From: Dickeya solani IPO 2222
Lineage (GTDB): Bacteria > Pseudomonadota > Gammaproteobacteria > Enterobacterales > Enterobacteriaceae
Reading direction: 5' to 3'
Assembly: GCF_001644705.1 (NCBI RefSeq)
Contig: NZ_CP015137.1
Coordinates: 2,310,001-2,342,000, forward strand
Length of the DNA stretch: 32,000 nucleotides
Of this stretch, positions 2,579 through 22,849 are shown piece by piece. A program made the position numbers and the translations under genes. The notes below the pieces were generated by a model. The model did no database searches, was not told where the DNA came from, and worked only from the letters and a program-made list of their open reading frames with translations. Within the stretch, counting starts at the first letter, position 1; each line of letters begins with the position of its first letter.

Positions 2579-2594
2579 AGGCCGCGTCCGCTGG

Positions 2595-7381: not shown

Positions 7382-8209
7382 ATGTTGGTGGAAATTGAAA
7401 ACCTCCGTATCGCGTTCGCCAGCCGGACGGAAACGTTTGAGGCGGTGCGCGGCGTCAGCTTCAGCGTCGGTAAGGAAAAATTCGCCATCGTCGGCGAAAG
7501 CGGTTCCGGCAAGTCCCTGACCGCCCGCTGCCTGATGCAGCTGCTGCCGGGCAGCGCCCGCGTTCAGGCCGATAAACTGAGTTTTGACGGCATCGACCTG
7601 CGCGGCGCCAGTGAAAAGACGCTGCGGCAAATTCGCGGCAAACGGGTCGGCTTTATCCTGCAGGACCCGAAATATTCGCTGAACCCGGTGATGACCATCG
7701 GCCAGCAGGTGGCGGAAGCCTGGCGCGAGCACAAAGGCGGCAGCCGCCGTGCGGCGATGGACGCCGCCATCGATCTGCTGAATCAGGTACGCATTCGCGA
7801 CCCGCAGCGGGTCGCGAAATGTTATCCGCATGAAGTGTCGGGCGGCATGGGGCAACGGGTGATGATCGCCATGATGCTGGCGCCCGACCCGGAACTGCTG
7901 ATTGCCGATGAACCGACCTCGGCGCTGGACGCCACCGTGCAGGCGGAGATCCTGTGCCTGATCGACGATCTGGTGTCGCAGCGCGGCATGGGGTTGATCC
8001 TGATCAGTCACGATCTGCCGCTGGTGTCGCATTTCTGCGATCGGGTAGCGGTGATGTACGCCGGGCGGATCGTCGAAATGCTGCAGGCCAGCGAACTGCT
8101 ACAGGCGCAGCATCCGTATACGCAAGGGCTGCTGGCCTGCCTGCCGTCGCTGAAACACCCGCGCGATCGGCTGCCGGTGTTGCAGCGCGACCCATCCTGG
8201 AGAACCTGA
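7382..8209 (+). CDS. ABC peptide transporter ATP-binding protein (DppD/OppD-like), 275 aa
   Basis: Walker A GESGSGKS, signature VSGGMGQRV and Walker [13 protein letters not shown]. It starts immediately after the upstream TAA. Confidence 0.9.
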
Positions 8210-8949: not shown

Positions 8950-10457
8950 CATTACACTGGCAGCGCGCCATTGATGAGGCGCGTGCGATCGCTCAATCCT
9001 GGAATCAGCCCGGCGAGCCGGGCGGCGCCATGACGTTGTTCGACGGCGAGCAGATCCGTGCCGCCTGCTGCGGCGGGCTGGCGGATTTGGCGCAGAATAC
9101 CCCATTCACCACCCAGAGCGTGGTGCGTTTCGCCTCGGTGACTAAACACCTGTTTGCTTCACAGGTGACGGGAGCCGCCAGCCATGCGCTGGCATTGACC
9201 GACCGTCTCGATCAACACCTGCCGCAGTTGACCGGCGAAAACGGCAAGGTGACGGTCGGACAGGCGCTGGACATGACCTCCGGCCTGCCGGACGTGCGCG
9301 AAAGCCTGTCGCTGCTGGGGTTGTCGGTGTACAACGCCACCTCGGCCGACAGCTTGCTGGCGTTTCTGGCGGACAACGGCGACCTGAATTACCCGGCGGG
9401 CAGCGAGATCTCCTACACCAATACCGGTTACCGGCTGGTGGAAGAAGCGCTGAAAGCCAAAGGTATCTATTTCGCCGACCTGCTGCGCCAGCACGTAAAC
9501 CAGCCGCTGGAGATCGCGCTCAGCGCGCCGGAAACCTGGTTTAATATCGTGCCCGGACTGGTGCCGGGCTATTGGCCATCGCCGCAGGGCTGGCAGTTGT
9601 CCTGCGCCGGGCTGCATCTGTCCACCTCCGGCTGCGTCACCGGCAGCGTGCGCGATCTGACGGTCTGGCTGCAATCGCTGCTGAACAATCAGGGGCCGGG
9701 CGAAGGCGTGCTGGCGCGTCTGTCCCAGCCGCGTTACCTGCGCGACGGTCGCATCACCGGTTACGGGCTGGGCGTGGCGCACAGCCGCCTCGGTGATGCG
9801 CTGCTGGTAGGGCACGGCGGTTCTCACGCGGGTTATAAGAGTTATTTTCTGCTCGACCCGGTATTGCAGGTCGGGGTGGCGCTGGTCGCCAACCGGGAAG
9901 ATGTCGCTACTTACGACAGCGTGCTGCGGGTGATGTCCGTCTTGCTGGATCAGCCGCTGCCGGCGCGCGGGCATAACCTGACGCCGGGTCTGTACGCGGC
10001 GGAGCAGGGCGGTCACTGGCTGGAAGTGAAAGGACCGGGCGCCTGCTGGCTGGGCGCGACCGAAACCCTGTACCGCAGCGATGAGCCGGGCGTGGCGGTG
10101 TCGTTGTCCAGTCATCTGCCGATGACGCTGCGGCAAAACGGCATGGCGATCGAAGGGGAAATCGGTCACGCGCCATGCCGCTTTCTGCCGGTGGAAGCAG
10201 ACAACAGCGTGACGCAGCTGCAAGGCCGCTGGTACTGGCCGGATACCCGTAGCGAACTGGTGATTGACGGCGATCGTATCGTGATGGGGCTTGGCCCGGC
10301 GGCGATCGCCGGTTCTCTGCAATCACTCGGCAACGGCCGCGCGCTCGCCACGGTGCAGGACGGCCCGTGGGAGAAACGCTTCTCGCTGCAGGTACAAGAC
10401 GGTCAACTGACGCTGCTGCTGAATCGCAGCCGGGTGGTGCGCTATCGGCGCGGGTGA
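8946..10457 (+). CDS. D-aminopeptidase-like serine hydrolase (peptidase S12, beta-lactamase fold plus C-terminal barrel domains), 503 aa
   Basis: SxxK motif (FASVTKH), YxN motif (SYTNTGY) and HGG motif (VGHGGSHAG), spaced as in class C / DAP-type enzymes. About 170 extra C-terminal residues resemble those of Ochrobactrum DAP. ATGA overlap with the upstream ATPase gene. Confidence 0.75.
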   Translation: MTLHWQRAIDEARAIAQSWNQPGEPGGAMTLFDGEQIRAACCGGLADLAQNTPFTTQSVVRFASVTKHLFASQVTGAASHALALTDRLDQHLPQLTGENGKVTVGQALDMTSGLPDVRESLSLLGLSVYNATSADSLLAFLADNGDLNYPAGSEISYTNTGYRLVEEALKAKGIYFADLLRQHVNQPLEIALSAPETWFNIVPGLVPGYWPSPQGWQLSCAGLHLSTSGCVTGSVRDLTVWLQSLLNNQGPGEGVLARLSQPRYLRDGRITGYGLGVAHSRLGDALLVGHGGSHAGYKSYFLLDPVLQVGVALVANREDVATYDSVLRVMSVLLDQPLPARGHNLTPGLYAAEQGGHWLEVKGPGACWLGATETLYRSDEPGVAVSLSSHLPMTLRQNGMAIEGEIGHAPCRFLPVEADNSVTQLQGRWYWPDTRSELVIDGDRIVMGLGPAAIAGSLQSLGNGRALATVQDGPWEKRFSLQVQDGQLTLLLNRSRVVRYRRG

Positions 10458-10604: not shown

Positions 10605-11924
10605 TCAATCGTTCCTGCTGGATGAGACTCCCCGCAGGCCGCGCGCGGTCGCAGGCGTACCCGGTGACTGGAGTATGAAGGCATCCGATGGGCCGACTTC
10701 AATCTCACAGATCTCAAGGCCGAGCTGACGACCATCGTTTGACGCGGTCATGGTAATCGTTTCGGCACAATCGATCGTCAGCCGCAGAATGTCGCTGGAT
10801 TGGTTTAGCTCTTGATGCGGTATGAGCGCATCAAAAACCACAACGAACGTGCTTTCTGACCAGCGGTTTAGGGTGGCGGGGTACTCATCAACTTTCAATG
10901 TGAGCTCATCAACCTGGCGTGTCGACAGTATGTTGGTAACTCTAAACCGTATCAGAATATCCCGGTCTTTCCTGAATGGAATATCGATGGTTGCTGTCGG
11001 CGTCGGACCCATCCAACGGCTGAACTTGTGTTCGTTGCGTTCACGGCAATGCCACCCTGTGCCGTTCAATGGTTGTGACATATCCACAACAGTCCAGCCG
11101 GCCGGGCGAATCAAAGCCTTGCGGTAGTTATCCTCCGCGGCGCTCGCAAAATCCACACCATAGGTCGCCTGGAAACGCGCCATTTGCTCGTCGTAGAGTT
11201 CACGGGCAATGGCAACGATTTCCTGGTCGAGATCAATCAGCTGATTGGCCGCTGCTATCGCCTCTTCGCTTAAGCTCGGCTTTTGCTGTTTACTGGCGTG
11301 TATATTGAGCGGCTGTGGCTGGTCTGGAGGGAGCGATAGCCATAATTGCAGCGCGGATAGCGACCGTCCAAAATCCTCCTGGAAGCCGATAAAAGACAGC
11401 GAGCGCAGCGTTTTCTCCGCCCGTTGCCGAACGAAAGCCCGGAAGTCCTGATTATTGGGGGAGCCGTTTCGCCAGGCTTGGCGGTATTCCCCCGGTGCAC
11501 AGGCCAATTGGCAGGTGATTTGGTTCCAGTTAATGTATTGGGATTGCGGATGGCTAAAAAATGCTACCTGATCATTGCGGGCCAAATCGCGAATCAGTTC
11601 ACCACCAGGTATAACGGCAACTTCATCGTCAGTCCAACGGTGCACCATCCACCAGTTAGACACCACCCTGTCCAGCGGGTCTCGTAAAAAGCACATGGTC
11701 GCGACGTTCGATATTTTTTCAGGCCAGTACCAACTGCCGAATGGGTCATGAATAAAACGCGCCCGTGCCAGCCGGTTCGGCTCAAGTTCAACATCGCCGG
11801 AATTCATCTCACTGTAGTGTTCTTCTAAGTGAATACACTCATCGGACGGAAAAAAGTTTTGCAAATACTTTAGCAGCGATGTGCCTGCGCACTTATTAAT
11901 ATGGTGAAAAACAATACGAGGCAT
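10605..11924 (-). CDS. Sulfotransferase-family protein with an unassigned C-terminal domain (439 aa)
   Basis: 5-prime-PSB-like motif HHINKCAGTSLL at residues 7-18. 3-prime-PB-like motif FLRDPLDRVVSNW. The C-terminal ~170 aa (GWHCRERNEHKFSRWMGPT...) resembles the GW..E....RW accessory domain seen on some polysaccharide-modifying enzymes. The gene and flanks have visibly lower G+C than neighbours. SD AAGG lies upstream of the ATG. Confidence 0.65.
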   Translation of the reverse strand: MPRIVFHHINKCAGTSLLKYLQNFFPSDECIHLEEHYSEMNSGDVELEPNRLARARFIHDPFGSWYWPEKISNVATMCFLRDPLDRVVSNWWMVHRWTDDEVAVIPGGELIRDLARNDQVAFFSHPQSQYINWNQITCQLACAPGEYRQAWRNGSPNNQDFRAFVRQRAEKTLRSLSFIGFQEDFGRSLSALQLWLSLPPDQPQPLNIHASKQQKPSLSEEAIAAANQLIDLDQEIVAIARELYDEQMARFQATYGVDFASAAEDNYRKALIRPAGWTVVDMSQPLNGTGWHCRERNEHKFSRWMGPTPTATIDIPFRKDRDILIRFRVTNILSTRQVDELTLKVDEYPATLNRWSESTFVVVFDALIPHQELNQSSDILRLTIDCAETITMTASNDGRQLGLEICEIEVGPSDAFILQSPGTPATARGLRGVSSSRND

Positions 11925-12220: not shown

Positions 12221-13180
12221 TTACCGATAAATCCCCACGACCGCGTCTTCACCGACGTAACCATAGCCGCGGTACATGCCTTCGCTGTTGAACGGCAGTG
12301 CGATATTGCCCTGATGGTCAACGGCGATCAGTCCGCCGCTGCCGCCCAGCGCCAGTACTTTTTCCATGACGACGTTGTCGGCGGCTTGCGACAGCGGCAG
12401 GTTACCGTATTCCATCAACGCCGAAACGTCGTACGCCGCGACGGTGCGCATGAACACCTCGCCGGTGCCGGTGCAGGAGACGGCGACGGTGCGGTTGTTG
12501 GCGTAACAGCCTGCGCCGACGATCGGTGAGTCGCCGACGCGTCCGGCGCGTTTGTTGGTCATGCCGCCGGTGGAGGTCGCCGCCGCCAGATTACCGCCTG
12601 CGTCCAGCGCTACCGCGCCGACCGTGCCGAACTTGCGATCCGGATCGAGCGGATCGGAGCCCTGCGCCTGACGTTCGCCATCGTGATCCAGCAGGATCTT
12701 GCCGTCGCCTGTCTGCGCTTTCAGCAACTGCTGGTAGCGCTCATCGGTGGAGAAAAAGTCCGGTTCGACCATCTCCAGCCCCTGCTCGCGGGCGAACGTT
12801 TCAGCGCCTTCCGCCGTAAACATCACGTGCGGGCTGCGCTCCAGTACCGCGCGCGCCGCCAGAATCGGGTTGCGGATGTGGTTAACACCGGCGATGGCGC
12901 CCGCTTCCAGCGAACGGCCGTCCATGATGCTGGCGTCCAGTTCGTGGGTGCCGCGGTGGGTAAACACCGCCCCTTTGCCCGCATTGAACAGCGGACACTC
13001 TTCCAGCAGGCGCACCGCTTCGGTGACCGCATCCAGCGCGCTGCCGTTGGCCGCCAGGATTTCCTGACCGCGGGCGACGATGCTTTGCAACGCGGCGCGA
13101 TAGCGCTGTTCTTTCTCGCTGTCCATCGCCGTGCGACTGAGCGCACCCGCGCCGCCATGAATCACAATGACCGGTTTCAT
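12221..13180 (-). CDS. iaaA: Isoaspartyl peptidase / L-asparaginase (Ntn-hydrolase, IaaA/YbiK type), 319 aa
   Basis: MKPVIVIHGGAGALSR N-terminus and autoprocessing region DRKFGTVGAVALD (nucleophile Thr). Length matches E. coli IaaA. ATG at 13180 is preceded by GGAGAG. The track ORF start at 13198 is a GTG inside the repeat array. Confidence 0.85.
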   Translation of the reverse strand: MKPVIVIHGGAGALSRTAMDSEKEQRYRAALQSIVARGQEILAANGSALDAVTEAVRLLEECPLFNAGKGAVFTHRGTHELDASIMDGRSLEAGAIAGVNHIRNPILAARAVLERSPHVMFTAEGAETFAREQGLEMVEPDFFSTDERYQQLLKAQTGDGKILLDHDGERQAQGSDPLDPDRKFGTVGAVALDAGGNLAAATSTGGMTNKRAGRVGDSPIVGAGCYANNRTVAVSCTGTGEVFMRTVAAYDVSALMEYGNLPLSQAADNVVMEKVLALGGSGGLIAVDHQGNIALPFNSEGMYRGYGYVGEDAVVGIYR

Positions 13181-13191
13181 CGTCTCTCCGT

Positions 13192-13271
13192 TATTCACGA
13201 TACTGTTTTTTCACAATACTGTTTATTCACAATACTGTTTATTCACAATACTGTTTATTCACAATACGGTT
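13192..13271. repeat. Tandem repeat array, 5 x 16 bp (consensus TATTCACAATACTGTT)
   Basis: Read directly. Units are at 13192, 13208, 13224, 13240 and 13256. The three central copies are nearly identical and the outer ones have 1-2 changes. The array fills 80 of the 108 bp between the M55 gene stop and the iaaA start. Confidence 0.95.
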
Positions 13272-13288: not shown

Positions 13289-14110
13289 TTAGTTCTGCGT
13301 GGTTGCCAGATAGGAAAATGCCCCCAGCAGGCTGACGATCGGCGCGATGGTCGGGGATTGATAACCCACGGTGACGGCGTCTTTGCGGGTGACGCCCGGA
13401 ATCAGGCAGAACAGGTCCGCCAACACCGGTTTGGCGACCATCAGCTCCAGCTCATACGGTGGTTGCAAACGGGTGGTCGTCTCTTTATGCGCCTGTTGCA
13501 CTGCCTGAGTCGCCGCCAGCCGGATGGCGTTGCGCGCCGCTTCGGGACTCAGCGACTCCGCCGCGGTCTGGGAAATGGCGCGTTTCACGCAGGCGTAGTG
13601 GGCGGCCGGGTAGTAGCGGTTGATCCAGCTTTGCAGCGTGTCGTCGCCGCTCACCAGCCACAGCGGGGTGTTCAGCTCCGCGCCGGCGGCGGCGTAGATA
13701 TCGCTTTCGCCCATCACTTCGCCGTTGATGCGCACCCGGTAAAACGCCCGGCCGTTGATGGTGTGCGCCAGCACGCCGTGTTCTCCGGCGGCGCTGTGGT
13801 AGCCGATGAACATCAGGCCATCGAACTGTTGCTGTTGCAAGCCTTCCACCATCGACAGACCGCGCGGTTTGCCCTGTACCAGCCGGGCGCGCGGGTCGAT
13901 ATTTTCAGCGCGCAGGTTGGTCATGGCGGCGTGGCTGTCGGCCACCACCACTTCGCTGGCGCCGCCGGCGAACGCGCCTTCAATGGCGGCGTTCACTTCC
14001 TGCTCCATCAGCCCACGGGCTAACTGGTATTCCGGCGTGCCGGGGCTGCACTGTTCCGGGCGCATCACGCCCGCGATGCCTTCGATATCCGCAGAAATAA
14101 ATACTTTCAT
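13289..14110 (-). CDS. D-aminopeptidase DppA family (peptidase M55), 273 aa
   Basis: MKVFISADIEGIAGV N-terminus, plus VVADSHAAMTNL, SMVEGL, FIGYHS and LVSGDD. These align with Bacillus DppA (M55) as I recall it. Confidence 0.85.
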   Translation of the reverse strand: MKVFISADIEGIAGVMRPEQCSPGTPEYQLARGLMEQEVNAAIEGAFAGGASEVVVADSHAAMTNLRAENIDPRARLVQGKPRGLSMVEGLQQQQFDGLMFIGYHSAAGEHGVLAHTINGRAFYRVRINGEVMGESDIYAAAGAELNTPLWLVSGDDTLQSWINRYYPAAHYACVKRAISQTAAESLSPEAARNAIRLAATQAVQQAHKETTTRLQPPYELELMVAKPVLADLFCLIPGVTRKDAVTVGYQSPTIAPIVSLLGAFSYLATTQN

Positions 14111-14142: not shown

Positions 14143-15201
14143 TTATGCGGGAAAATCCTGTGCCAGACGGTCCAGCACCTGCGTCAGCGCCGGGCGATGG
14201 TGGCCGCGAAAACCGGTGACGGCCTCTGCCTGCAGCAGGGCATCCAGCACCGCGTGTTCGGTGGCGTCGGCCGCCGCGTTGAGCAGTGGTTCCAACTGCG
14301 CGTCTTCCGGCGGTTGGGGTGTCGGTTGCGTGGAAAAGGCCACCGCGATATCGCCGGAGCCGTGTCCCCAGTAGCTGCCGAGCCGCCCAAGTCCGGCGCC
14401 GGCGCGGCGAGCGATGCGGGTCAGCTGGCGGGCATCCAGCGCGGCGTCGGTGGCCATGATGATGATGATGGAGCCGGCGTCTCGTTGGGGCGCCAGTTCC
14501 GGTAACAGCGGCGCAATCGCCTCGCCGACCTGCACGCCGTCCAGCGTCAGGGCGGGAAGGGCGCCGAAATTGGCCAGCACCAGCACGCCGAGGGTGGCGT
14601 TCAGTTCCGGAATCAGCCGGGAAGCGGTGCCGATGCCGCCTTTGAGCGCAAAGCAGCTCATGCCGCGCCCGGCGCCGACGCTGCCGCGGGCAAAATCGGC
14701 GGTAGCGTTGTCCAGCGCCGCGCGCGCCATCGCGTCGGTTACCGCCAGCGCCTGAATATCGTTGAGCCAGCCGTCGTTGCACTCCAGCGCCAGCGGGTTG
14801 ACGGTCGGCAAACTGCGCCCCAGTTCTGGGTTGCGGCCAATGGCGTCGCGCACCAGCGTGGTAAACAACGTGCCGACCGACAGGGTATTACTGAGCAGGA
14901 CAGGCGTCTGCAAGCGTCCCAGCTCTTCAATTTGCACCAGCCCCACCGGTTTGGCGAAGCCGTTAAGCACCGCCGCGCCGCAGGGCAACGGTTGTGTAAA
15001 CAGGTTATCGCCGGGCGGTACGATGGCGGTGACGCCGGTCTGAATCTCACCCTGCGCCAGCGTATGGTGACCGACCCGCACGCCGGGCACGTCGCTCAGG
15101 CGATTGTGCGGGCCGGGAGACATGCGCGGCGTGCCGAGCTGGCGTTCCGCGCGCCAGCGTTGCAGCAGCGGCGCCAGTCGTGCCTGTTGATAAGGAGTCA
15201 T
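14143..15201 (-). CDS. DmpA/P1-family aminopeptidase (peptidase S58, Ntn-type, L-aminopeptidase/D-esterase or beta-aminopeptidase-like), 352 aa
   Basis: NRLSDVPGVRVGHHTL, TGVTAIV, GAGRG and KGGIGTAS are present. A self-cleavage-type site DAG|SIIIIMATDAAL and GSGDIAVAFST are also seen. ATG at 15201 (MTPYQQ) lies 11 nt after the upstream stop. The track ORF to 15369 overlaps the permease gene. Confidence 0.85.
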   Translation of the reverse strand: MTPYQQARLAPLLQRWRAERQLGTPRMSPGPHNRLSDVPGVRVGHHTLAQGEIQTGVTAIVPPGDNLFTQPLPCGAAVLNGFAKPVGLVQIEELGRLQTPVLLSNTLSVGTLFTTLVRDAIGRNPELGRSLPTVNPLALECNDGWLNDIQALAVTDAMARAALDNATADFARGSVGAGRGMSCFALKGGIGTASRLIPELNATLGVLVLANFGALPALTLDGVQVGEAIAPLLPELAPQRDAGSIIIIMATDAALDARQLTRIARRAGAGLGRLGSYWGHGSGDIAVAFSTQPTPQPPEDAQLEPLLNAAADATEHAVLDALLQAEAVTGFRGHHRPALTQVLDRLAQDFPA

Positions 15202-15212: not shown

Positions 15213-16115
15213 TCAGCTTTTCAGTTTCGGGTCCAGCGTGTCGCGCAGCGCGTCGCCCAGCAGGTTGAACGCCAGCACGGTGCAGAAGATAGCCAGACCG
15301 GGGAACACGCTCACGTGCCATTGTCCCGCCATCATCATGCTGCGGCTCATCGCCAGAATGTTGCCCCATTCGGGTACGTCAGGCTCCGGTCCCAGGCCGA
15401 TGAAACTCAGGCCGGCCGCGGTCAGGATACTGGTGCCGATGCGCATGGTGAAATAAACAATCACGTTCGACAGGGTGCCCGGCAGAATATGGCGCAGCAG
15501 AATCACCCGGTCCGGCGCGCCGGCGCAGCGCACCGCTTCGACGTAGGCCGCTTGCTTGAGCGACAGCGTGGAGGCACGCACGATGCGGGCGAATACCGGC
15601 ACGCTGAACACCGCCACCGCGATAATCACGTTATTGAGACCGGGGCCGAGGATCGCCACCACCGCGATCGCCAGCAGCATACCGGGAAAAGCAAACAAGA
15701 CGTCGCAGCCGCGCATGATCAGCATATCGATGCTGCGGCCATAATAGCCCGCCAGCAAGCCGAGAGCGATGCCCGCCAACATACCGAGCGAGACCGAGAC
15801 GATGCCGATGTAGAGCGAAATGCGCGCGCCGTAAATAATGCGGCTCATCACGTCGCGGCCCAGATCGTCGGTGCCCATCCAGTGGCTGGCGGAAGGCGCT
15901 GCGCCGAGCGACATCCAGTCCGGATCCATTGGGCTCCGGGGCGCCAGCCAGGGGGCGAACACCGCCACCAGCACCAGCAGCAGTACGAAACCGCCGGAGG
16001 CCAGCGCCATCGGGTTACGGATGAACGCATGCAGAAAATCGCGCCACGGTGAACGAATCGTACTGTTGTTCAGGGCGGATGGGCTCGCCACGGTCGGCTC
16101 TTGAGAAGTGTTCAT
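15213..16115 (-). CDS. ABC peptide transporter permease (GsiD/DppC-like), 300 aa
   Basis: OppC_N-like SHWMGTDDLGRDVMSRIIYGAR followed by a permease core. Confidence 0.9.
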   Translation of the reverse strand: MNTSQEPTVASPSALNNSTIRSPWRDFLHAFIRNPMALASGGFVLLLVLVAVFAPWLAPRSPMDPDWMSLGAAPSASHWMGTDDLGRDVMSRIIYGARISLYIGIVSVSLGMLAGIALGLLAGYYGRSIDMLIMRGCDVLFAFPGMLLAIAVVAILGPGLNNVIIAVAVFSVPVFARIVRASTLSLKQAAYVEAVRCAGAPDRVILLRHILPGTLSNVIVYFTMRIGTSILTAAGLSFIGLGPEPDVPEWGNILAMSRSMMMAGQWHVSVFPGLAIFCTVLAFNLLGDALRDTLDPKLKS

Positions 16116-16123: not shown

Positions 16124-17044
16124 CTAACGCAGACGAATGGCCGGGTTCACCACCGCGTACAGCAGGTCGACCAGCAGGTTAATCAGGATAAATTCAAACA
16201 CGAACAGCATCACCAGCGCCTGAATCACCGGCTGATCCTGCGTCTTGATGGATTCGATCAACAACCAGCCAAGCCCCGGCCAGTTGAACACGCTTTCCAC
16301 CACAATAGAGCCGCCCAGCAGAAAACCGAACTGCAACCCAAGCATGGTGATCACCGGAATCAGCGCATTGCGCATAACGTGTTTCCAGACGATCAGCCGC
16401 TGGCGCAGCCCTTTGGCGCGGGCGGTACGCACATAATCTTCCTGCATCACTTCCAGAAACGCGGAGCGGGTAAAGCGCGCCATGACGGCGGCCACCGAGG
16501 CGCCCAACGTTAGCGCGGGCAGAATAATGTCAGCCGGTTTGTTGTAACCGCTGACCGAAAAAATGCCGAACGGCATGGCGACGAATTGGATCAGCAGCAG
16601 ACCAAGCCAGAACGGCGGCATCGAGATACCGCCCACCGCCAGACTCATTAGCGACCAATCCTGCCATTTGCCGCGTTTGAGCGCGGCAAACACGCCGATC
16701 AGCAAGCCGAGCAGCACCGACCAGGCGAAGCCGGCCAGCGCCAGCCACAGCGTCGGCATAAAACTTTTCTGGATGACGGTCAGCACCGGCTGTTGGGTGC
16801 GGTAGGTGATGCCGAGATCACCGTGCGCTAGCCCGTCCAGCCAGTTGAGGTATTGCTGCGGCAGCGGATCGTTCAACCCCAGACGCTCACGGGCGGCTTC
16901 CACCGCCTCGATGGGGGCGTCGGGGCCGGCGTAGATCCGCGCCGGGTCACCCGGTAACAGCTTGATAAAACCGAACACCAACAGGGAGATCACCAGCAAA
17001 ACCGGGATCATTTCCAGCAAACGTCGGACGATATAAGCAAACAT
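16124..17044 (-). CDS. ABC peptide transporter permease (GsiC/DppB-like), 306 aa
   Basis: Same length as E. coli GsiC, with long recalled identities (LPGDPAR, TLGASVAAVMARFTRS, DYVRTARAKG, MLGLQFGFLLGGSIVVE.VFNWPGLG, INPAIR). Confidence 0.9.
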   Translation of the reverse strand: MFAYIVRRLLEMIPVLLVISLLVFGFIKLLPGDPARIYAGPDAPIEAVEAARERLGLNDPLPQQYLNWLDGLAHGDLGITYRTQQPVLTVIQKSFMPTLWLALAGFAWSVLLGLLIGVFAALKRGKWQDWSLMSLAVGGISMPPFWLGLLLIQFVAMPFGIFSVSGYNKPADIILPALTLGASVAAVMARFTRSAFLEVMQEDYVRTARAKGLRQRLIVWKHVMRNALIPVITMLGLQFGFLLGGSIVVESVFNWPGLGWLLIESIKTQDQPVIQALVMLFVFEFILINLLVDLLYAVVNPAIRLR

Positions 17045-17061: not shown

Positions 17062-18618
17062 TTACTTGAACTCAGCCTGATCGAAGATCAGCGAACCGTC
17101 AGCCAGCATGTAAACGCCGGACAGATTTTTCACTTTGCCTACCAGGTTGTCCGGCACGCCCAGGAACACCACCGGCGCGTCTTTCCAGATCAACTTCTGG
17201 GCATCGGCGTAAGCAGCGGCGCGTTTGTCGTTATCCGCGGTCGCCAGGCCGGCCATGATGGCTTTATCCACATCCGGGTTGCTGTAGTAAGAGACGTTGT
17301 AGGCTTTCGGTACCCAGGACTCGGTGGCGAACAGTGGACGCAGCGCCCAGTCGGCGTCGCCGGTGGACGGCGACCAGCCGCCGTAGTACAGGTCAAACTC
17401 AGCCTGTTTCGGGTCTTTCACGCCCCACAATTTTTCGTTGCGCGCGCCGGAATCCATCGGGGTTACGGTCGCCTTGATGCCGACCTGCTCCAGTTGCTGT
17501 TTGAAGAACTGCGCACTGCGCACCGCGGCGGTGGTGTTGGTGGTCCACAGTTTCAGTTCCAGCCCGTTCTCGTAGCCGGCTTCTTTCAACAGTTCTTTGG
17601 CCTTGGCCGGGCTGTAGGTGTAGTTCGGTTCGCTCTGGCTGGCGAAGAACTGTACGCGCGGCGCCATCGCAGACGCGGCAGGCAGGCCCATGCCGGCAAA
17701 ACCGACTTTCAACCAGATGGTACGGTTGATGGCGTAGTTCAGCGCCTGGCGTACACGCACGTCGTTCAGTGGCGCATGCTGGGTGTTGATCGCCATATAG
17801 TACAGATAGATGCTGGGGTCGCGTTGGATCGCCAGCTTGGTGTCATCTTCAATGGTTTTTACCAGATCGGACGGCAGCGGGTAGATGGCGTCGGACTGGC
17901 CGGATTTCAGCGCGGCGACGCGGGTAGCGTCTTCCGGCGACGGGTAGAAGGTCACGCTGTCGACTTTCGGCCAGCCTTTCTGCCAGTAGTTGTCATATTT
18001 CACCAGCTTGACGTCTTTGCCCTGCTGCCATTCGGAGAACTTGAACGGGCCGGTGCCGACCGGGTGCACGCGCAGTTGGGTTTCGTCCGGGTACTGTTTC
18101 AGCGCCGCCGGGCTGTGCATGACCGCCGACGGATGGGCCAGCGTGTTGACGAAGGCGCCGAAGGATTTGTTCAGCTCGATTTTTACTTGCGTCGGCGACA
18201 GTACCGTCACGGTTTTGATCATGTTGAACAGGCTGTTGCGTTTGAGCCCTTTGGTCTGATCGGCCAGACGGTCAAGGTTGGCTTTCACCGCATCGGCGTT
18301 GAACGGCGTGCCGTCCTGGAAGGTGACGCCTTCGCGCAGGGTGATGGTGAATTCGGTGGCGTCGGCGTTGCCGGTATAGCCGGTAGCCAGCCGCGGCACC
18401 AGTTTCATCTGGTTGTCGAACTGGAACAAACGCTCGAAGATCCCGCTCTGGATGGAGTAGCTCAGGGTGTCTGAGGTGTCGTGCGGGTCCAGCCCGGTGA
18501 TATCGGCATACATGGAAATACGCAGATCCTGCGCCTGAGCCGCAGCGGCCAGACACAATGACAGCCCAAGAGCGACGGCGGAACGACGTGAAGTTACTGT
18601 GGATAGTAACGATTTCAT
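17062..18618 (-). CDS. ABC transporter periplasmic peptide-binding protein (GsiB-like, SBP family 5), 518 aa
   Basis: Sec signal peptide MKSLLSTVTSRRSAVALGLSLCLAAAAQA. SBP_bac_5-like body. Strong SD AGGAG (complement of 18624-18628). Confidence 0.9.
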   Translation of the reverse strand: MKSLLSTVTSRRSAVALGLSLCLAAAAQAQDLRISMYADITGLDPHDTSDTLSYSIQSGIFERLFQFDNQMKLVPRLATGYTGNADATEFTITLREGVTFQDGTPFNADAVKANLDRLADQTKGLKRNSLFNMIKTVTVLSPTQVKIELNKSFGAFVNTLAHPSAVMHSPAALKQYPDETQLRVHPVGTGPFKFSEWQQGKDVKLVKYDNYWQKGWPKVDSVTFYPSPEDATRVAALKSGQSDAIYPLPSDLVKTIEDDTKLAIQRDPSIYLYYMAINTQHAPLNDVRVRQALNYAINRTIWLKVGFAGMGLPAASAMAPRVQFFASQSEPNYTYSPAKAKELLKEAGYENGLELKLWTTNTTAAVRSAQFFKQQLEQVGIKATVTPMDSGARNEKLWGVKDPKQAEFDLYYGGWSPSTGDADWALRPLFATESWVPKAYNVSYYSNPDVDKAIMAGLATADNDKRAAAYADAQKLIWKDAPVVFLGVPDNLVGKVKNLSGVYMLADGSLIFDQAEFK

Positions 18619-18634
18619 GGTGTCTCCTGTAAAT

Positions 18635-18660
18635 GGTGTGTGTTGCTGGTTGTGTTGCTG
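18635..18660 (-). promoter_or_regulatory. C/A-rich element in the 5-prime leader of the binding-protein gene (mRNA sense CAGCAACACAACCAGCAACACACACC)
   Basis: Read directly, with an internal near-duplication of a 11-12 nt unit. It lies just upstream of the SD. It resembles the C/A-rich targets of the G/U-rich R1 region of GcvB sRNA on peptide-transporter mRNAs. Confidence 0.3.
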
Positions 18661-18769
18661 CTTTCGATTATTGTTTGTTTTTATTACTGTTTAATTTTCC
18701 CGCTATCAGTACATTGCTGATGCGGTGATAACCCACAGACAGTGGGGTGTCCCTGGTGTTGGACGATAC

Positions 18770-18857
18770 TATTGTTCACTACTGACTATTGTTCACTACT
18801 GACTATTGTTCACTACTGACTACTGTTCACTACTGACTACGGTTTACTGCTACTGAC
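18770..18857. repeat. Tandem repeat array, 4 x 17 bp (TATTGTTCACTACTGAC) plus a degenerate 20-bp fifth copy that runs into the 3-prime end of the ATPase gene
   Basis: Read directly. Units are at 18770, 18787, 18804 and 18821 (one change), with a degenerate copy at 18838-18857. The stop codon of the upstream ATPase gene (18837-18839) and its last codons (SVSSSKP) lie in the degenerate copy. Confidence 0.9.
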
Positions 18858-20735
18858 GGACGGCTCAAGTCCGGCCTCGCTCACCCAATGGTGCGGGGCG
18901 ACTTCGCGGTAGCGGGCTTTTTCCACCACCTCGTTCGCCTTGCGCAGCGGCGAGGGGATTTCGCTGTCGTCCAGCTCGCGTGCATAGCGGCGGCTGGGGT
19001 CGGCAATCGGCACCGAGGCCAGCAGGCGTTGGGTATACGGATGCTGCGGGTTGTTGAATACCGACTGACGCGGGCCGATTTCCACGATCTGACCGAGGTA
19101 CATCACCGCTACGCGGTTGGCGATGCGTTCCACCACCGCCATATCGTGGGAGATGAAAATCCACGACACGCCGGTTTTCTGCTGTAAATCCATCATCAGG
19201 TTGACCACCTGCGCCTGAATCGACACGTCCAGCGCCGACACCGCCTCGTCGGCGATGATGACTTGCGGTTGCAGCGCCATGGCACGGGCGATGGCGATAC
19301 GCTGGCGCTGGCCGCCGGAGAACTCGTGCGGGTAGCGTTGGGCGTGTTCCGGTTGCAGGCCGACGCTTTTCAGCAGCGCCTGTACCTGCGGCGTGGCGTC
19401 TTCCAGCGATTTCACCAGCCCGTGCAGCAGCAGCGGTTCGGCGATGGTGAAACCGACGGTCAGGCGTGGGTTGAGCGACGCGTACGGGTCCTGAAACACC
19501 ATCTGCATTTTGCGGCGCAGCGGCTGGAAGTCGCGGTCGCGCAGACTGGCGATTTCCTGCCCGTCGAACAGCAGGCTGTCGGTCTGGCTTTCCACCAGAC
19601 GCAGCAGTGCCCGCCCGGTGGTGGATTTGCCGCAGCCGGATTCGCCGACAATCGCCAGCGTTTCGCCCGGCCACACGGCGAAATCGATCTGTTCCACCGC
19701 ATGTACCCGGTGGGTAACGGAGGAGAGAATGCCGCTGCGTATCGGGTAATAGACTTTCAGGCCGCGGATGTCGAGCAGCGGCGGCGCGTCATAACGCGCG
19801 GTGGTATGGTCTTGTTCGGGCGCGGCGTTTTGCTGCCCCAGCAGCGGGAAGCGTTTAGGCCAGGCGCTGTCGCGCATGTCGCCCAAGCGCGGTACCGCCG
19901 CCAGCAGCGCTTTGGTGTAGTCGTGCTGCGGGCGGTTGAAAATGGCGTCCACAGTCCCGTGTTCCACCACCTCGCCGCGGTACATCACCACTACGCGGTC
20001 GGCGATTTCCGCCACCACGCCCATGTCGTGGGTGATGAATAACACCGACATGTTGCTCTGGCGCTGCAGGTCGCGCAGGATTTGCAGGATGCGCGCCTGC
20101 ACGGTTACATCCAGCGCGGTGGTGGGTTCGTCGGCGATCAGCAACTGTGGGTCGCACGCCAGCGCCTGAGCGATCATCACCCGCTGGCGCATGCCGCCGG
20201 ACAGCGAGTGCGGGTAGCTGTTCATCACCCGGTCGATGTCGGCGATGCGCACCTTACGCAGCAGCTCGCGCGCCTTGCGGTCAGCGCTGGCGGCGTCGCA
20301 CATCTGGTGGTCCAGCAACGCTTCGGTGAGCTGGTCGCCTACTTTCAGCACTGGGTTGAGCGAGGTCATCGGCTCCTGAAAGATCATCGCCATATCGCGG
20401 CCGCGCAGCCGACGGCGGGCGTCGTCCTTCATGGTCAGCAGATCGTGGCGGCGGCCGGCGTTATCGATAAAACGGATGCCGCCGCGTTCAATGCGGGCGG
20501 ACGCGGCCAGCAGCCCCATCACCGTCAGAGAGGTGACCGACTTGCCGGAACCACTCTCGCCGACCACGGCCACCACTTCCCCTTTATTGAGGCTGAAAGA
20601 GACGCCCTTGAGCGCCTGATGGGTGCCGGAGCGGCCGCTGAAGCTAACGCTCAGGTCATCGATCTCCAGCACCGGTTGCGGCACCGGGTCGGACGCGATC
20701 GCAGCAGGGATTGCGGTTGAGGTGGTATCCGTCAT
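18837..20735 (-). CDS. Fused double-ATPase ABC transporter protein (GsiA-like), about 632 aa
   Basis: Two complete NBDs: Walker A GESGSGKS and GESGCGKS; signatures LSGGMRQRV and FSGGQRQRI; Walker [13 protein letters not shown] and VIIADEAVSALD. ATG at 20735 is preceded by GGAG (5-nt spacer). The track start (GTG at 20759) overlaps the epimerase stop and remains possible. Confidence 0.9.
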   Translation of the reverse strand: MTDTTSTAIPAAIASDPVPQPVLEIDDLSVSFSGRSGTHQALKGVSFSLNKGEVVAVVGESGSGKSVTSLTVMGLLAASARIERGGIRFIDNAGRRHDLLTMKDDARRRLRGRDMAMIFQEPMTSLNPVLKVGDQLTEALLDHQMCDAASADRKARELLRKVRIADIDRVMNSYPHSLSGGMRQRVMIAQALACDPQLLIADEPTTALDVTVQARILQILRDLQRQSNMSVLFITHDMGVVAEIADRVVVMYRGEVVEHGTVDAIFNRPQHDYTKALLAAVPRLGDMRDSAWPKRFPLLGQQNAAPEQDHTTARYDAPPLLDIRGLKVYYPIRSGILSSVTHRVHAVEQIDFAVWPGETLAIVGESGCGKSTTGRALLRLVESQTDSLLFDGQEIASLRDRDFQPLRRKMQMVFQDPYASLNPRLTVGFTIAEPLLLHGLVKSLEDATPQVQALLKSVGLQPEHAQRYPHEFSGGQRQRIAIARAMALQPQVIIADEAVSALDVSIQAQVVNLMMDLQQKTGVSWIFISHDMAVVERIANRVAVMYLGQIVEIGPRQSVFNNPQHPYTQRLLASVPIADPSRRYARELDDSEIPSPLRKANEVVEKARYREVAPHHWVSEAGLEPSVSSSKP

Positions 20736-20755: not shown

Positions 20756-21721
20756 TCACAGCCAGATGCGGCCGAGGTTATACGTCAGGTACGGCGAGCT
20801 GTCCGCCGCCAGCCAGATCGGGCCGTCCAGATCCACGTGTTCGGCGGCCAGCGCCGCCGGCATGGCGGCTTCCATCGCCAGCGAGGAGCCGAGCATGCAG
20901 CCCACCATGATGCGCATGTCGTACTGGCGCGCTTCGGCTACCATCGCCAGCGCTTCGGTCAGCCCGCCGCACTTGTCCAGTTTGATGTTGATCATCTCGT
21001 AGCGGTCACGCAGAGCGGCAATGTCGCCACGGTGGTGGCAGCTTTCGTCGGCGCACACCGGAATGGCGTGTTTAAACGTCGCCAGCTCGCTGTCCTGCCC
21101 GGCGGGCAACGGTTGTTCCACCATCGCGATGCGATGCGCGGCCAACTGGCGCAACAGCGGCTCCAGTTCCAGCCCGCTCCAGGCTTCGTTGGCGTCCACA
21201 ATCAGCGTCACGTTGGGCGCGGACTGGCGAATCGCCGCCACCTTTTCCAGAATCTGTTCCCGGTCGAGTTTGATTTTCAGCAGTAGCGCACCGCGGGAGA
21301 CCGCGTCTCTGGCGGCGTTCGCCATGTTTTCCACACTGTCGAGACTCAGGGTTTCAGCGGTGACGATCGACTGCGGCGGTGCGATGGCGAGGTGCTGCCA
21401 CAGCGTCTGTCTGGCAAGCGCGGCGTTCAGCCGCCATAAGGCGCAGTCCAGCGCGTTGCGGGCGGAACCCGGCGGCAGCAACTGCTGCAGTTCTTCCAGA
21501 CCGATGTCGTTTTCCACCGCCTGACGCACGGTTTCCAACTGGTGGGTCACGCTGTCGGCGGTTTCCTGATAGTGGACGGTGGGGGTGCATTCCCCCCGGC
21601 CGATAAAGCCGCGCTCTTCCAGCGTCACGCGCACCACCGTGACCGCGGTGCGGGTGCCGCGGGAAATGGCGAAAGGCCGGGCCAGCGGCAGTTCCACGGT
21701 TTCGATTTGCATCTGTCGCAT
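20756..21721 (-). CDS. Enolase-superfamily dipeptide epimerase (L-Ala-D/L-Glu epimerase YcjG-like), 321 aa
   Basis: Same length as E. coli YcjG, with many recalled identical blocks: ARNALDCALW, LLKIKLD, TLIVDANEAW, MVEQPLPA, CADESCH, YEMINIKLDKCGGLTEALA and DLDGPIWLA. Confidence 0.85.
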   Translation of the reverse strand: MRQMQIETVELPLARPFAISRGTRTAVTVVRVTLEERGFIGRGECTPTVHYQETADSVTHQLETVRQAVENDIGLEELQQLLPPGSARNALDCALWRLNAALARQTLWQHLAIAPPQSIVTAETLSLDSVENMANAARDAVSRGALLLKIKLDREQILEKVAAIRQSAPNVTLIVDANEAWSGLELEPLLRQLAAHRIAMVEQPLPAGQDSELATFKHAIPVCADESCHHRGDIAALRDRYEMINIKLDKCGGLTEALAMVAEARQYDMRIMVGCMLGSSLAMEAAMPAALAAEHVDLDGPIWLAADSSPYLTYNLGRIWL

Positions 21722-21725
21722 GGGC

Positions 21726-22733
21726 TTACCCCTGGGTTTTCAGCAGCGTTGCAATGTCATCAATACCGAAACGGATCGGGTCGGTGGCGGGCACGCCGAA
21801 ACGTTCGCTCAGTTCGCGGCAGTAATCGCGCGCTGCCTGTTCGCCATAGTTGGAGGTATTGATGGCGAAACCGGCCAACTGTACATCCGGGTTGGTGACG
21901 CGCGCAGCGCGCAGGTTGGCGTCCACGCAGTCGCCCAGTTCCACCATCGGTTGATGGGGCAGGTGACGCATGTGCGGGCGGCCCATTTCGTGGCACATCA
22001 CCAGCCAGTGCGGTTGTGCGCCGTGGATAAGACCGGTAGTCACCCCAGCGTAGGACGGATGAAACAGCGAACCCTGACCTTCGACGATATCCCAGTGGTC
22101 GTCGTCGTTGGCCGGAGACAGTGCTTCCGCCGCGCCGGCGATGAAGTCGGCGATCACCGCGTCAATGGCGATACCGTCGCCGGCGACCAGCACCCCGGTC
22201 TGTCCGGTGGCGCGGAAGTCGGCTTTCAGACCCTGCGCGCGCATGGCGGATTCCAGCGCCAGCGAGGTGTACATCTTACCGACCGAACAGTCGGTGCCGA
22301 CGGTCAGCACGCGTTTACCGCTGCGTTTTTTGCCGCTGCCGACGGTCAGTTCCGGGCGCATATGTCGAATATCGAACAGTTGTACCTGATGCTGTTCCGC
22401 CAGCTCCTGCAAACCGGGGACGTCGATCAGGCGCTGATGCAGGCCGTTGGCGACGTTCATGCCGGCTTCGATCGCGGCGCGCACGGTATCCAGCCAGTGC
22501 GGCGGCAGGAAACCGCCGGCGTTGGCGGTACCCAGTACCAGCGTTTTGGCGCCGCGCGCCACGGCGGACGGAATATCCAGATCATCGAGCCCCAGCGACA
22601 CCGTGCTGCCCGGCAGGCGCAGCTGTCCTACGCACTGTTCGGGGCGCCAGGTGTGAATGCCGCGCGCCGTTTTCACCGCCAGCGGGTCGGTCACGTCGCC
22701 AAGAAAAAGCAGGTAAGGTTGTGGAATCAGCAT
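21726..22733 (-). CDS. DUF1611-family protein (DgcN-like putative N-acetyltransferase), 335 aa
   Basis: Family-typical blocks: PYLLFLGD, the P-loop-like VGTDCSVGKMYTSL and EGQGSLFHPSYAG. First gene of the minus-strand operon, 4 nt upstream of the epimerase gene. Confidence 0.75.
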   Translation of the reverse strand: MLIPQPYLLFLGDVTDPLAVKTARGIHTWRPEQCVGQLRLPGSTVSLGLDDLDIPSAVARGAKTLVLGTANAGGFLPPHWLDTVRAAIEAGMNVANGLHQRLIDVPGLQELAEQHQVQLFDIRHMRPELTVGSGKKRSGKRVLTVGTDCSVGKMYTSLALESAMRAQGLKADFRATGQTGVLVAGDGIAIDAVIADFIAGAAEALSPANDDDHWDIVEGQGSLFHPSYAGVTTGLIHGAQPHWLVMCHEMGRPHMRHLPHQPMVELGDCVDANLRAARVTNPDVQLAGFAINTSNYGEQAARDYCRELSERFGVPATDPIRFGIDDIATLLKTQG

Positions 22734-22745: not shown

Positions 22746-22767
22746 GTGGTTGCATAGTGGTTGCATA
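22746..22767. repeat. Perfect tandem duplication 2 x 11 bp (GTGGTTGCATA) in the 5-prime leader of the DUF1611 gene
   Basis: Read directly, 13 bp from the start codon at 22733. mRNA sense is UAUGCAACCAC x2. Confidence 0.85.
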
Positions 22768-22832
22768 AAAAGAGATATCTAAGACTATTCCACGATGCTT
22801 TTTTTCTGACGAATGCTTGTTTATAGGTAGGG

Positions 22833-22849
22833 TATAACCTGAGGTTATA
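22833..22849. promoter_or_regulatory. Perfect 17-bp palindrome TATAACC-TGA-GGTTATA upstream of the locus B operon (candidate operator with an ATA-N9-TAT, LTTR-box-like core)
   Basis: Read directly, about 100-115 bp upstream of the DUF1611 start, inside the AT-rich intergenic region 22734-22984. Confidence 0.4.

Follow-up and report, generated by a model that had tools for sequence, protein, structure and literature searches.

A DgcN/DgcA-type gene pair at the head of a peptide importer and peptidase operon in Dickeya solani

Described routes of D-glutamate inversion

D-Glutamate is a major and hard-to-use part of bacterial cell-wall debris. Its catabolism by DgcN and DgcA in marine bacteria was reportedly described by Yu et al. 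in 2023 (ISME J 17:537), with D-glutamate being turned into usable N-acetyl-L-glutamate. The DgcN/DgcA pathway is now established and its enzymes are classified as EC 2.3.1.312 and EC 5.1.1.25 (PMC11747546). A preprint identifies 7XRJ as the structure of the D-glutamate acetyltransferase from Yu et al. 2023 (bioRxiv 10.1101/2024.10.14.618325), and its sequence could be traced to Tritonibacter/Ruegeria TM1040. In the marine systems, the gene of the DUF1611 acetyltransferase lies directly upstream of that of a YcjG-like racemase, and in Ruegeria TM1040 and Vibrio tritonius a D-amino-acid transaminase gene comes next after the pair, pointing to free D-amino acids.

Peptide-bound D-Glu is handled by other described systems. 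In Escherichia coli, the murein tripeptide is imported through MppA/Opp and processed by MpaA, YcjG and PepD (PMC2954226). The ycjG gene of E. coli and Klebsiella sits between mpaA and tpx, adjoining mpaA in E. coli K-12, and the E. coli locus has neither a DUF1611 gene nor a transporter operon. A separate E. coli cluster, iaaA-gsiABCD (ybiK-yliABCD), begins with iaaA. The dppABCDE-ykfABCD cluster of Bacillus subtilis joins DppA (M55), a Dpp-type importer and the YkfB epimerase in the use of murein peptides (PMC2954226); it also contains an LD-carboxypeptidase and an NlpC/P60 endopeptidase, and it lacks a DUF1611 gene.

Gene content and conservation of the Dickeya operon

The window, that is the whole stretch of 32,000 nucleotides of Dickeya solani IPO 2222 analyzed here, contains a related gene pair that opens a nine-gene operon on the minus strand. 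Its features, from the upstream region onwards, are as follows.

22779..22849, minus strand: conserved upstream block, candidate operator/promoter, bearing the perfect dyad TATAACC-TCA-GGTTATA at 22849-22833
21726..22733, minus strand: dgcN, predicted DUF1611-family D-glutamate N-acetyltransferase (335 aa; Pfam, NCBIfam and 7XRJ matches)
20756..21721, minus strand: DgcA-type enolase-superfamily epimerase (321 aa; 4 nt downstream of dgcN; MR_MLE_N and MR_MLE_C)
18837..20735, minus strand: fused double ABC ATPase of the peptide (Gsi/Dpp) type (two ABC_tran and oligo_HPY domains)
17062..18618, minus strand: periplasmic family-5 (peptide/glutathione-type) substrate-binding protein (SBP_bac_5, E 1.7e-95)
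16124..17044, minus strand: GsiC-like ABC permease (BPD_transp_1; GsiC model 400.7 bits, below the cutoff of 463)
15213..16115, minus strand: GsiD-like ABC permease (OppC_N and BPD_transp_1; GsiD model 396.9 bits, below the cutoff of 484)
14143..15201, minus strand: S58 (DmpA/BapA-type, "P1 family") aminopeptidase (Peptidase_S58, E 1.2e-102)
13289..14110, minus strand: M55 (DppA-type) D-aminopeptidase (Peptidase_M55, E 4.8e-96)
12221..13198, minus strand: IaaA-like Ntn hydrolase of the isoaspartyl/beta-aspartyl peptidase family (Asparaginase_2, E 4.9e-119)

The initial annotation had placed two reading frames 4 nt apart at the head of a transporter operon, and this is borne out. Both lie on the minus strand, where direct reading of the sequence shows the dgcN stop TAA (21728-21726) separated by GCCC from the epimerase ATG (21721-21719), a gap of 4 nt; the ABC ATPase, the SBP_bac_5 protein and two permeases follow downstream on the same strand. 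The first gene product had been called DUF1611, with an HMM scan as the check, and Pfam does place it there (DUF1611_N, E 1.8e-23; DUF1611, E 4.2e-76). Two points need correction. The pair is already annotated: RefSeq/PGAP names dgcN/dgcA in Dickeya, Pantoea, Erwinia, Klebsiella and rare E. coli strains; as the Dickeya orthologues already carry these names, the pair itself is not new. D-Glu handling after peptide import had been thought uncharacterized in enterobacteria, but the MppA/Opp-MpaA-YcjG-PepD route of E. coli is known and follows the same logic of importing a D-Glu peptide and then inverting its D-Glu (PMC2954226).

The DUF1611 protein scores 525.6 bits against the NCBIfam DgcN equivalog model NF041892 (cutoff 480), covering profile positions 1-324 of 326, where the 7XRJ sequence itself scores 543.2 bits. 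It matches PDB 7XRJ over its full length (residues 3-327, E 4.6e-106) and is 51% identical over 322 aa to DgcN of Ruegeria TM1040, and can by these matches be considered a clear DgcN. The dgcN and epimerase genes are adjacent in 82 loci. Of the 80 loci retrieved through DgcN, which range from Enterobacterales to Alphaproteobacteria, 77 have the epimerase gene within approximately 30 nt of dgcN; it likewise adjoins dgcN at the source locus of the crystallized enzyme. Both Dickeya proteins pass their NCBIfam equivalog models, although the DgcA model also accepts YcjG. Judged from sequence, the pair is a recognizable copy of the known DgcN/DgcA route.

Unlike its marine counterparts, the Dickeya pair stands before the genes of a peptide ABC importer and of S58, M55 and IaaA-like peptidases, and the cassette is carried mostly by plant-associated Enterobacterales, not by marine bacteria. 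The best NCBIfam match of the ABC ATPase is GsiA (821 bits, below the cutoff of 1077) and that of the substrate-binding protein is GsiB (495.6 bits, below the cutoff of 594), while the IaaA-like protein reaches 496.6 bits on the beta-aspartyl-peptidase model, below its cutoff of 567. The operon resembles E. coli iaaA-gsiABCD in having GsiA/B/C/D as best matches together with an IaaA-type homologue, but these five proteins do not reach the Gsi/IaaA equivalog cutoffs and are accordingly paralogues. The order also differs, with the iaaA-like gene last in Dickeya instead of first, and the Dickeya operon adds the dgcN, dgcA, S58 and M55 genes. In contrast to the E. coli ycjG locus, it has no MpaA-type amidase. 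It shares with the Bacillus cluster an M55 enzyme, a Dpp-type importer and an epimerase, although YkfB is distant from the Dickeya epimerase (PDB 1JPM, E 5.3e-22). Two gene starts depart from a mechanical reading or were set by comparison: the ABC ATPase likely begins at ATG 20735 behind a GGAG, where the mechanical ORF starts at GTG 20759, and the S58 enzyme likely begins at ATG 15201, giving 352 aa, as inferred from its translation and from orthologue lengths of 352-360 aa.

The order of the eight genes from dgcN to M55 is kept in most of the 67 closest loci, found in Dickeya, Lonsdalea, Pantoea, Erwinia, Tatumella, Rahnella, Rouxiella, Agarivorans and Celerinatantimonas. The IaaA-like gene, the last of the cassette in Pectobacteriaceae, follows M55 in Dickeya, Lonsdalea, Pectobacterium, Prodigiosinella, Brenneria, Agarivorans and Celerinatantimonas. 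Which genes are present and in what order, the families they belong to and the conservation of both the pair and the cassette are matters of direct observation, and the comparison of loci indicates that the operon arrangement is not due to chance. The link between the pair and these importer and peptidase genes is, as far as a literature search shows, experimentally unstudied; the search found no literature on this operon and no experiments on any enterobacterial member of the pair.

Upstream of dgcN is an AT-rich spacer of 250 nt that contains the conserved dyad. The block around it is invariant across Dickeya, Prodigiosinella and Lonsdalea, and its core, AGGYTATACCC-N7-AAACAAG, recurs in 31 loci about 70-230 nt (usually about 65-120) before the first operon gene, including operons of Pectobacterium and Symbiopectobacterium that have no dgcN. 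The block has a LysR-type shape and is a candidate operator/promoter for the operon; a LysR protein is encoded nearby, at 1558-2544. A direct repeat, ATGCAACCAC-T-ATGCAACCAC (22766-22746), just upstream of the dgcN start, was not taken as a functional element, as it occurs in no other locus.

Family membership and specificity residues of the epimerase

The assignment of the epimerase is less straightforward. Beyond its Pfam MR_MLE_N and MR_MLE_C domains, it scores 432 bits on the NCBIfam DgcA model NF042940 (cutoff 400), on which the Agrobacterium 4GFI protein reaches 458.7 bits; the model is non-discriminating, however, because YcjG of E. coli K-12, a proven dipeptide epimerase, also passes with 424.1 bits. 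On the YcjG model NF011708 (cutoff 343) the Dickeya protein passes marginally with 357.5 bits, compared to 677.2 bits for genuine YcjG. This overlap of curated models presents a practical annotation problem, and the public names of orthologues within a single clade alternate between DgcA and YcjG functions on account of it. The Dickeya epimerase has the same length as E. coli YcjG (321 aa) and is slightly closer to it (47.7% identity) than to a marine DgcA (42.9%), with 43-47% identity across the marine racemases. In a neighbor-joining tree it groups with YcjG, in a clade that is sister to the YcjG clade and not inside it (79/100 bootstrap).

The window contains neither mpaA nor tpx, and so no ycjG synteny, and in five E. 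coli genomes the cassette lies on an acquired island flanked by IS elements, where PGAP gives the names dgcN/dgcA. Given an island cassette in E. coli and ycjG beside mpaA in K-12, the epimerase is therefore a separate paralogue and not the ycjG orthologue.

In dipeptide epimerases, structures from the Gerlt group place the N-terminal ammonium of the dipeptide at a DxD motif; in the YkfB/L-Ala-L-Glu structure, the DxD after the eighth strand and an Arg of the 20s loop bind the ammonium group and the Glu side chain. The full catalytic set of the MLE subgroup is present in the Dickeya epimerase (K149/K151/D176/E202/D225/K247), as are R21/R24 and the DxD motif (D297-L-D299), both of them likewise invariant in all DgcN-linked proteins and so not discriminating. 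An alignment of specificity residues against YcjG and DgcA had been put forward in the initial annotation as a means of choosing between its readings, and does not decide between them, because neither the catalytic residues nor the 20s-loop Arg nor the DxD varies in either group: the Dickeya protein, YcjG, TM1040 DgcA and 4GFI share the KxK, the D/E/D set, K247, R21/R24 and the DxD. Close solved structures for the pair are 1JPD, 4GFI and 7XRJ.

Finer differences emerge from the 82 DgcN-linked epimerases, over which 55 invariant columns were defined. The Dickeya epimerase keeps all 55, and YcjG keeps 54, the DxD and R21 among them. At 13 well-conserved positions YcjG departs from the consensus of the DgcN-linked epimerases, and at every one of these (13/13) the Dickeya protein carries the DgcN-linked residue; they include the segment G278/L281/M283, common to the Dickeya epimerase and TM1040 DgcA. 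Among relatives of 4GFI, a Sinorhizobium homologue (63% identical) is not DgcN-linked, so that outside the enterics, too, there are unlinked members that keep every invariant residue. Taken together, the epimerase is predicted to be an N-acetyl-D/L-Glu racemase, with L-Ala-D/L-Glu epimerase activity also possible.

Relatives without dgcN and the role of the pair

Pectobacterium, Symbiopectobacterium and Brenneria have the same rph-adjacent operon without dgcN, such that the epimerase gene comes first. All 11 epimerases compared from such operons (4 Pectobacterium, 1 Symbiopectobacterium, 6 Brenneria) are changed at the 55 invariant columns, with 1-7 changes each, whereas 72 of the 82 DgcN-linked epimerases have none and the maximum among them is 3 (p = 7e-13, a value that overstates the evidence, since the dgcN-less lineages are related to one another and as few as one to three losses may underlie them). 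The changed columns are F17, I19 and R21 of the 20s loop, Y51, D92, N178/E179, which adjoin the metal ligand D176, and M276, and the replacement residues differ between lineages. This pattern indicates that the epimerase is evolutionarily dependent on dgcN, and it gives the predicted racemization of N-acetyl-D-Glu its sole indirect backing. The dgcN-less lineages nonetheless retain an intact epimerase ORF, so the enzyme does something without DgcN. No Pectobacterium or Brenneria protein appears among the best 120 DgcN homologues, and ORFs of 48-52 aa before the Brenneria epimerase are unconvincing as dgcN remnants (best tblastn E 0.044 over 23 residues).

Of the two readings first offered for the pair, a YcjG-like epimerase with a DUF1611 partner or an analogue of the DgcN/DgcA route, which are the right two, the latter is the better supported. 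The pair is probably a DgcN/DgcA module for the stereo-inversion of D-glutamate that fronts an operon for importing and dismantling unusual peptides. The Gsi/Dpp-type ABC importer would take up small peptides that ordinary peptidases leave unfinished, bearing D-amino acids or iso-linkages as in peptidoglycan stem-peptide fragments, and the S58 aminopeptidase, M55 D-aminopeptidase and IaaA-like hydrolase would free their residues, including D-Glu. DgcN would then use acetyl-CoA to convert D-Glu to N-acetyl-D-Glu, which the epimerase would turn into N-acetyl-L-Glu, the first intermediate of arginine synthesis, or a compound that may be deacetylated to L-Glu. In this proposed pathway, all of the substrates, the sequence of reactions and the regulator are inferences. 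Several points weigh against it. The operon has no deacetylase gene, and we know of no D-Glu release by any of the three peptidases; the identity of the epimerase is slightly on the side of YcjG; and N-acetyl-Glu has no ammonium group, yet the DxD is invariant in the DgcN-linked proteins.

If the DgcN/DgcA reading holds, this route would extend beyond marine bacteria, and the plant pathogens and epiphytes of Dickeya, Pantoea, Erwinia, Rahnella and Lonsdalea would have wired it to peptide uptake as a means of scavenging nutrients in rotting tissue and the rhizosphere. A wider proposal, which can be advanced only tentatively, is that the nine-gene cassette represents a self-contained and uncharacterized salvage pathway of plant-associated Enterobacterales. 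It would import D-amino-acid or gamma/beta-linked peptides, for example peptidoglycan stem fragments or plant gamma-glutamyl/D-amino-acid conjugates, which the three non-canonical peptidases would strip before DgcN/DgcA inverts the D-Glu. YcjG and DgcA would then form one promiscuous class, in which the gene neighbor (DgcN or MpaA) sets the in vivo substrate, and Pectobacterium and Brenneria, having lost dgcN, would be adapting their epimerases to a different substrate; their operons are ready-made natural mutants of the pathway.

A dual use of the epimerase is conceivable, if somewhat doubtful, whereby one enzyme would invert both imported L-Ala-D-Glu and the N-acetyl-D-Glu made by DgcN without distinguishing an N-acetyl from an L-Ala cap. 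Only the alpha-amino group of the cap distinguishes the two substrates, and such a breadth is consistent with the invariance of catalytic and substrate-loop residues across DgcN-linked proteins and YcjG, with the retained DxD, with the acceptance of both kinds of protein by both curated models and with the alternating names within one clade. Against this, the 13 derived positions of YcjG near an active-site segment suggest some specialization, the decay that follows dgcN loss argues that a DgcN-dependent activity is under selection in this operon, and the literature yielded no kinetics of either enzyme on the substrate of the other.

It is unlikely that the epimerase acts as a YcjG-like L-Ala-D/L-Glu (or other X-D/L-Glu) dipeptide epimerase to which DgcN is a separate accessory, with imported dipeptides inverted directly and thereby opened to cleavage by ordinary L,L-dipeptidases. 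The marginal pass on the YcjG model, the identity to YcjG and the sister position of the clades are in keeping with such a role, as are the 54 shared invariant columns and the intact epimerase ORFs of the 11 dgcN-less operons, and 4GFI was reportedly deposited with L-Ala-L-Glu bound. The peptide-importer context also recalls B. subtilis ykfB beside dppB-E (PMC2954226). However, the near-universal adjacency of dgcN would be left unexplained, and the loss of dgcN should not relax substrate-loop residues, yet does so in every dgcN-less lineage; the DgcN-linked residues at all 13 YcjG-differing positions and the absence of mpaA and tpx nearby likewise argue against a ycjG-type function. Least probable is a non-catabolic DgcN that detoxifies D-Glu/D-Asp from imported peptides or supplies N-acetylglutamate with no need of the epimerase, as might be read from locus L047, where dgcN is followed directly by the ABC ATPase gene without an epimerase gene, and from the 938-kb endosymbiont Candidatus Gullanella endobia, which keeps an intact dgcN ORF and no other cassette gene, since these are only two exceptions among 80 loci, N-acetyl-D-Glu is a dead end without a racemase, and the dgcN ORF in the gene-poor Gullanella region may simply not have decayed yet.

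DgcN and its operon

At its flanks the window shows a gene neighbourhood that is usual for enterobacteria, yicC ... rph-pyrE-slmA-dut-dfp, with approximately 21 kb of extra genes separating yicC from rph. These include the following operon:

Genes of the operon headed by dgcN (window positions)
22733-21726, - strand, dgcN-like gene (Pfam DUF1611_N and DUF1611)
21721-20756, - strand, epimerase (Pfam MR_MLE_N and MR_MLE_C)
20735/20759-18837, - strand, fused double ABC ATPase
18618-17062, - strand, family-5 binding protein
17044-16124, - strand, permease 1
16115-15213, - strand, permease 2
15201-14143, - strand, S58 peptidase (DmpA/BapA type)
14110-13289, - strand, M55 D-aminopeptidase (DppA type)
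13198-12221, - strand, Asparaginase_2/IaaA-like hydrolase

The coupling of the first two genes was described correctly in every detail by the initial annotation, the sequence GCCC forming the 4-nt gap between the DUF1611 stop codon TAA (21728-21726) and the epimerase ATG (21721), and the Pfam domains bear out its placement of 21726-22733 in DUF1611 and of the partner in the enolase superfamily. The DUF1611 protein, 98% identical to its D. undicola counterpart and 96% to that of D. oryzae, scores 525.6 bits against the NCBIfam DgcN model (cutoff 480) and matches PDB entry 7XRJ (E 4.6e-106), which a preprint (bioRxiv 10.1101/2024.10.14.618325) gives as the D-glutamate acetyltransferase structure solved by Yu et al. 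2023. The source of 7XRJ was traced to Tritonibacter/Ruegeria TM1040, whose protein is 51% identical to that of the window; the PDB sequences used throughout were reconstructed from HMMER alignments. As a kind, the gene pair is already known: the DgcN/DgcA pathway has EC numbers (2.3.1.312 and 5.1.1.25; PMC11747546), Dickeya orthologues are named 'N-acetyltransferase DgcN' and 'N-acetyl-D-Glu racemase DgcA' in public records, and an older SEED-style name of the TM1040 protein, 'Protein often near L-alanine-DL-glutamate epimerase (cell wall recycling)', indicates that the adjacency was noticed long ago. The parts worth experiment are the peptide-import context and the lineages that lack dgcN.

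The four importer proteins find their best NCBIfam matches in GsiA/B/C/D, each under its cutoff. The ATPase and binding-protein genes are separated by a 218-nt non-coding gap (18619-18836), compared to 22 nt in E. coli AH04 and approximately 100 nt in Pectobacterium.

Function of the epimerase

Two readings had been offered for the epimerase, a YcjG-type L-Ala-D/L-Glu epimerase or a DgcA partner of DgcN, with a comparison of YcjG and DgcA residues proposed as one check. E. coli YcjG is a biochemically proven dipeptide epimerase. The Dickeya enzyme passes both NCBIfam models, with 432 bits for DgcA (cutoff 400) and 357.5 bits for the YcjG type (cutoff 343), while E. coli K-12 ycjG (L081:4931-5896) reaches 424.1 bits on the DgcA model NF042940, above its cutoff of 400 and close to the Dickeya score, and DgcN-linked proteins pass the YcjG model at 357-377 bits (cutoff 343). 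Because each model accepts the other's proteins, orthologues of one clade are named either way in public records, an annotation hazard. The Dickeya epimerase is 47.7% and 48.3% identical to the YcjG of E. coli and Klebsiella, and 42.9%, 45.1% and 44.9% identical to TM1040 DgcA, V. tritonius DgcA and the Agrobacterium protein 4GFI, respectively. In a tree built by neighbour-joining only (172 members, including 144 representatives from an exhaustive search), the Enterobacterales operon-head epimerases are monophyletic (100/100) with YcjG as their sister (79/100), both lying inside a large DgcA-like family. A set of 82 DgcN-linked epimerases agrees without exception at 55 alignment columns, among them K149, K151, D176, E202, D225, K247, R21 and D297-x-D299 (Dickeya numbering), and YcjG retains 54 of these. 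The proposed residue check therefore yields no discriminating motif, and sequence cannot resolve DgcA from YcjG function.

We lean towards the DgcN/DgcA reading, the YcjG type being less favoured, on the grounds of adjacency, signature positions and the lineages without dgcN. Of the 80 loci to which DgcN led, in Enterobacterales, Alteromonadales, Vibrio and Alphaproteobacteria, 77 have an epimerase gene adjoining dgcN, within approximately 30 nt; an epimerase gene likewise adjoins the gene of the crystallised DgcN of TM1040. At all 13 signature positions, defined as at least 80% conserved in DgcN-linked proteins with the YcjG residue never seen among them, the Dickeya epimerase carries the DgcN-linked residue; nine of these residues recur in TM1040 DgcA, among them those of the segment GCML-G-SS-L-A-M, in which YcjG shows C, R and I. 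Promiscuous dual use of the epimerase is a live alternative.

In both Ruegeria TM1040 and V. tritonius a gene for a D-amino-acid transaminase comes after the pair, a setting of free D-amino acids, whereas in Dickeya the pair precedes the importer and then the S58, M55 and IaaA-like genes. These three families are known for cleaving bonds that standard peptidases leave: N-terminal D-Ala, L-Ala or β-amino acids (S58), D-Ala-D-Ala (M55) and β-aspartyl bonds (IaaA). We therefore propose that the importer would take up D-containing or iso-linked peptides, whose dismantling would release D-Glu for conversion by DgcN and DgcA into N-acetyl-L-Glu, which in turn might enter arginine synthesis or be deacetylated. 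How D-Glu stereochemistry is dealt with once peptides have been imported, initially thought uncharacterised in enterobacteria, has already been described for the murein tripeptide, with MpaA, YcjG and PepD (PMC2954226).

Lineages without dgcN

The operon also occurs in Pectobacterium, Symbiopectobacterium and six Brenneria species, at the same site beside rph; there it starts with the epimerase gene and lacks dgcN, and none of these genera is represented among the 120 best DgcN homologues. Each of the 11 dgcN-less epimerases departs from the 55 otherwise invariant columns by 1-7 substitutions, compared to none in 72 of the 82 DgcN-linked epimerases and a maximum of 3 in a leave-one-out control over those 82 (Mann-Whitney p = 7e-13). 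The hotspots are F17, I19 and R21 (the 20s specificity loop), Y51, D92, N178/E179 (beside the metal ligand D176) and M276, and replacements vary by lineage (R21 to N, Q or S; N178 to R, Q, T or D). Were the selected substrate an imported dipeptide, loss of dgcN should be irrelevant; that it matters indicates, from sequence comparison, that the selected function of the epimerase depends on the product of DgcN. As the genera are related, there may have been only one to three independent losses, and since the reading frames are intact the dgcN-less enzyme may be gaining a new substrate rather than decaying.

Four dgcN-less Brenneria operons have a 48-52-residue reading frame directly before the epimerase gene, a possible though unconvincing deletion scar that resembles the N-terminus of DgcN marginally at best (E 0.044 over 23 residues):

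Short reading frames in Brenneria loci (local coordinates)
L092:9840-9998
L094:3837-3983
L096:3849-3998
L098:2840-2998

Upstream elements, island and unusual carriers

A conserved dyad, TATAACC-TCA-GGTTATA (22849-22833), lies inside an invariant block of approximately 70 nt that was found in 31 loci, usually ~65-120 nt 5' of the first operon gene and, through an insertion, ~205-230 nt upstream in Lonsdalea; the Pectobacterium and Symbiopectobacterium operons are among those that carry this dyad element. This block is a candidate operator. LysR genes lie nearby in Pectobacterium and E. coli AH04, and farther off in the window. Upstream of the dgcN start codon, and 12 nt away from it, lies a direct repeat in tandem, ATGCAACCAC-T-ATGCAACCAC (22746-22766, - strand); the exact repeat is absent from all 98 loci examined, the first copy being degenerate in D. 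undicola and D. oryzae.

The same yicC-rph island holds a second peptide-type ABC cluster (1558-10457), in which an SBP_bac_5 protein, two permeases and two ATPases are divergent from the LysR and M19 genes:

Further genes of the island (window positions)
1558-2544, - strand, LysR regulator (second cluster)
2595-3677, - strand, M19 dipeptidase (second cluster)
8811-10457, 548-residue β-lactamase-fold protein at the end of the second cluster (best NCBIfam match D-aminopeptidase, far under cutoff)
10605-11924, - strand, 439-residue reading frame (weak Sulfotransfer_2 match only, E 7.8e-06; no NCBIfam match)

A β-lactamase-fold gene also lies 3' of the cassette in Symbiopectobacterium and Brenneria goodwinii, and the cluster may provide a second route of uptake for peptides with D-amino acids. 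The 439-residue frame, which lies in the island's lowest-GC stretch (0.507 vs ~0.6 around it), has the look of having been inserted separately between the two peptide clusters.

The eight genes from dgcN to M55, the first two named dgcN/dgcA, occur on an IS-flanked island in 5 of 5426 complete E. coli genomes, among them that of strain AH04 (L082, chromosome 2455593-2481565). The flanks of the island are IS1, ISKpn26, Tn3 and IS4321 elements, which together with the adjoining mrk type 3 fimbrial genes point to recent acquisition, probably from Klebsiella. The 938-kb endosymbiont Candidatus Gullanella endobia retains an intact 335-residue dgcN reading frame (L049:10001-11008; 72% identical to the window protein), recorded as 'dithiobiotin synthetase', in a gene-poor region, where it survives alone, with no epimerase, transporter or peptidase genes. 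The reverse of the Pectobacterium case is seen in a record named Martelella alba BGMRC 2031 (L047:10001-13008), where dgcN (ending at 11008) is followed after approximately 120 nt directly by the ABC ATPase gene (from 11128) and the epimerase gene is absent; its proteins are 72-83% identical to those of Dickeya, a level of identity unexpected under an alphaproteobacterial name and suggestive of transfer or of mislabelling of the assembly.
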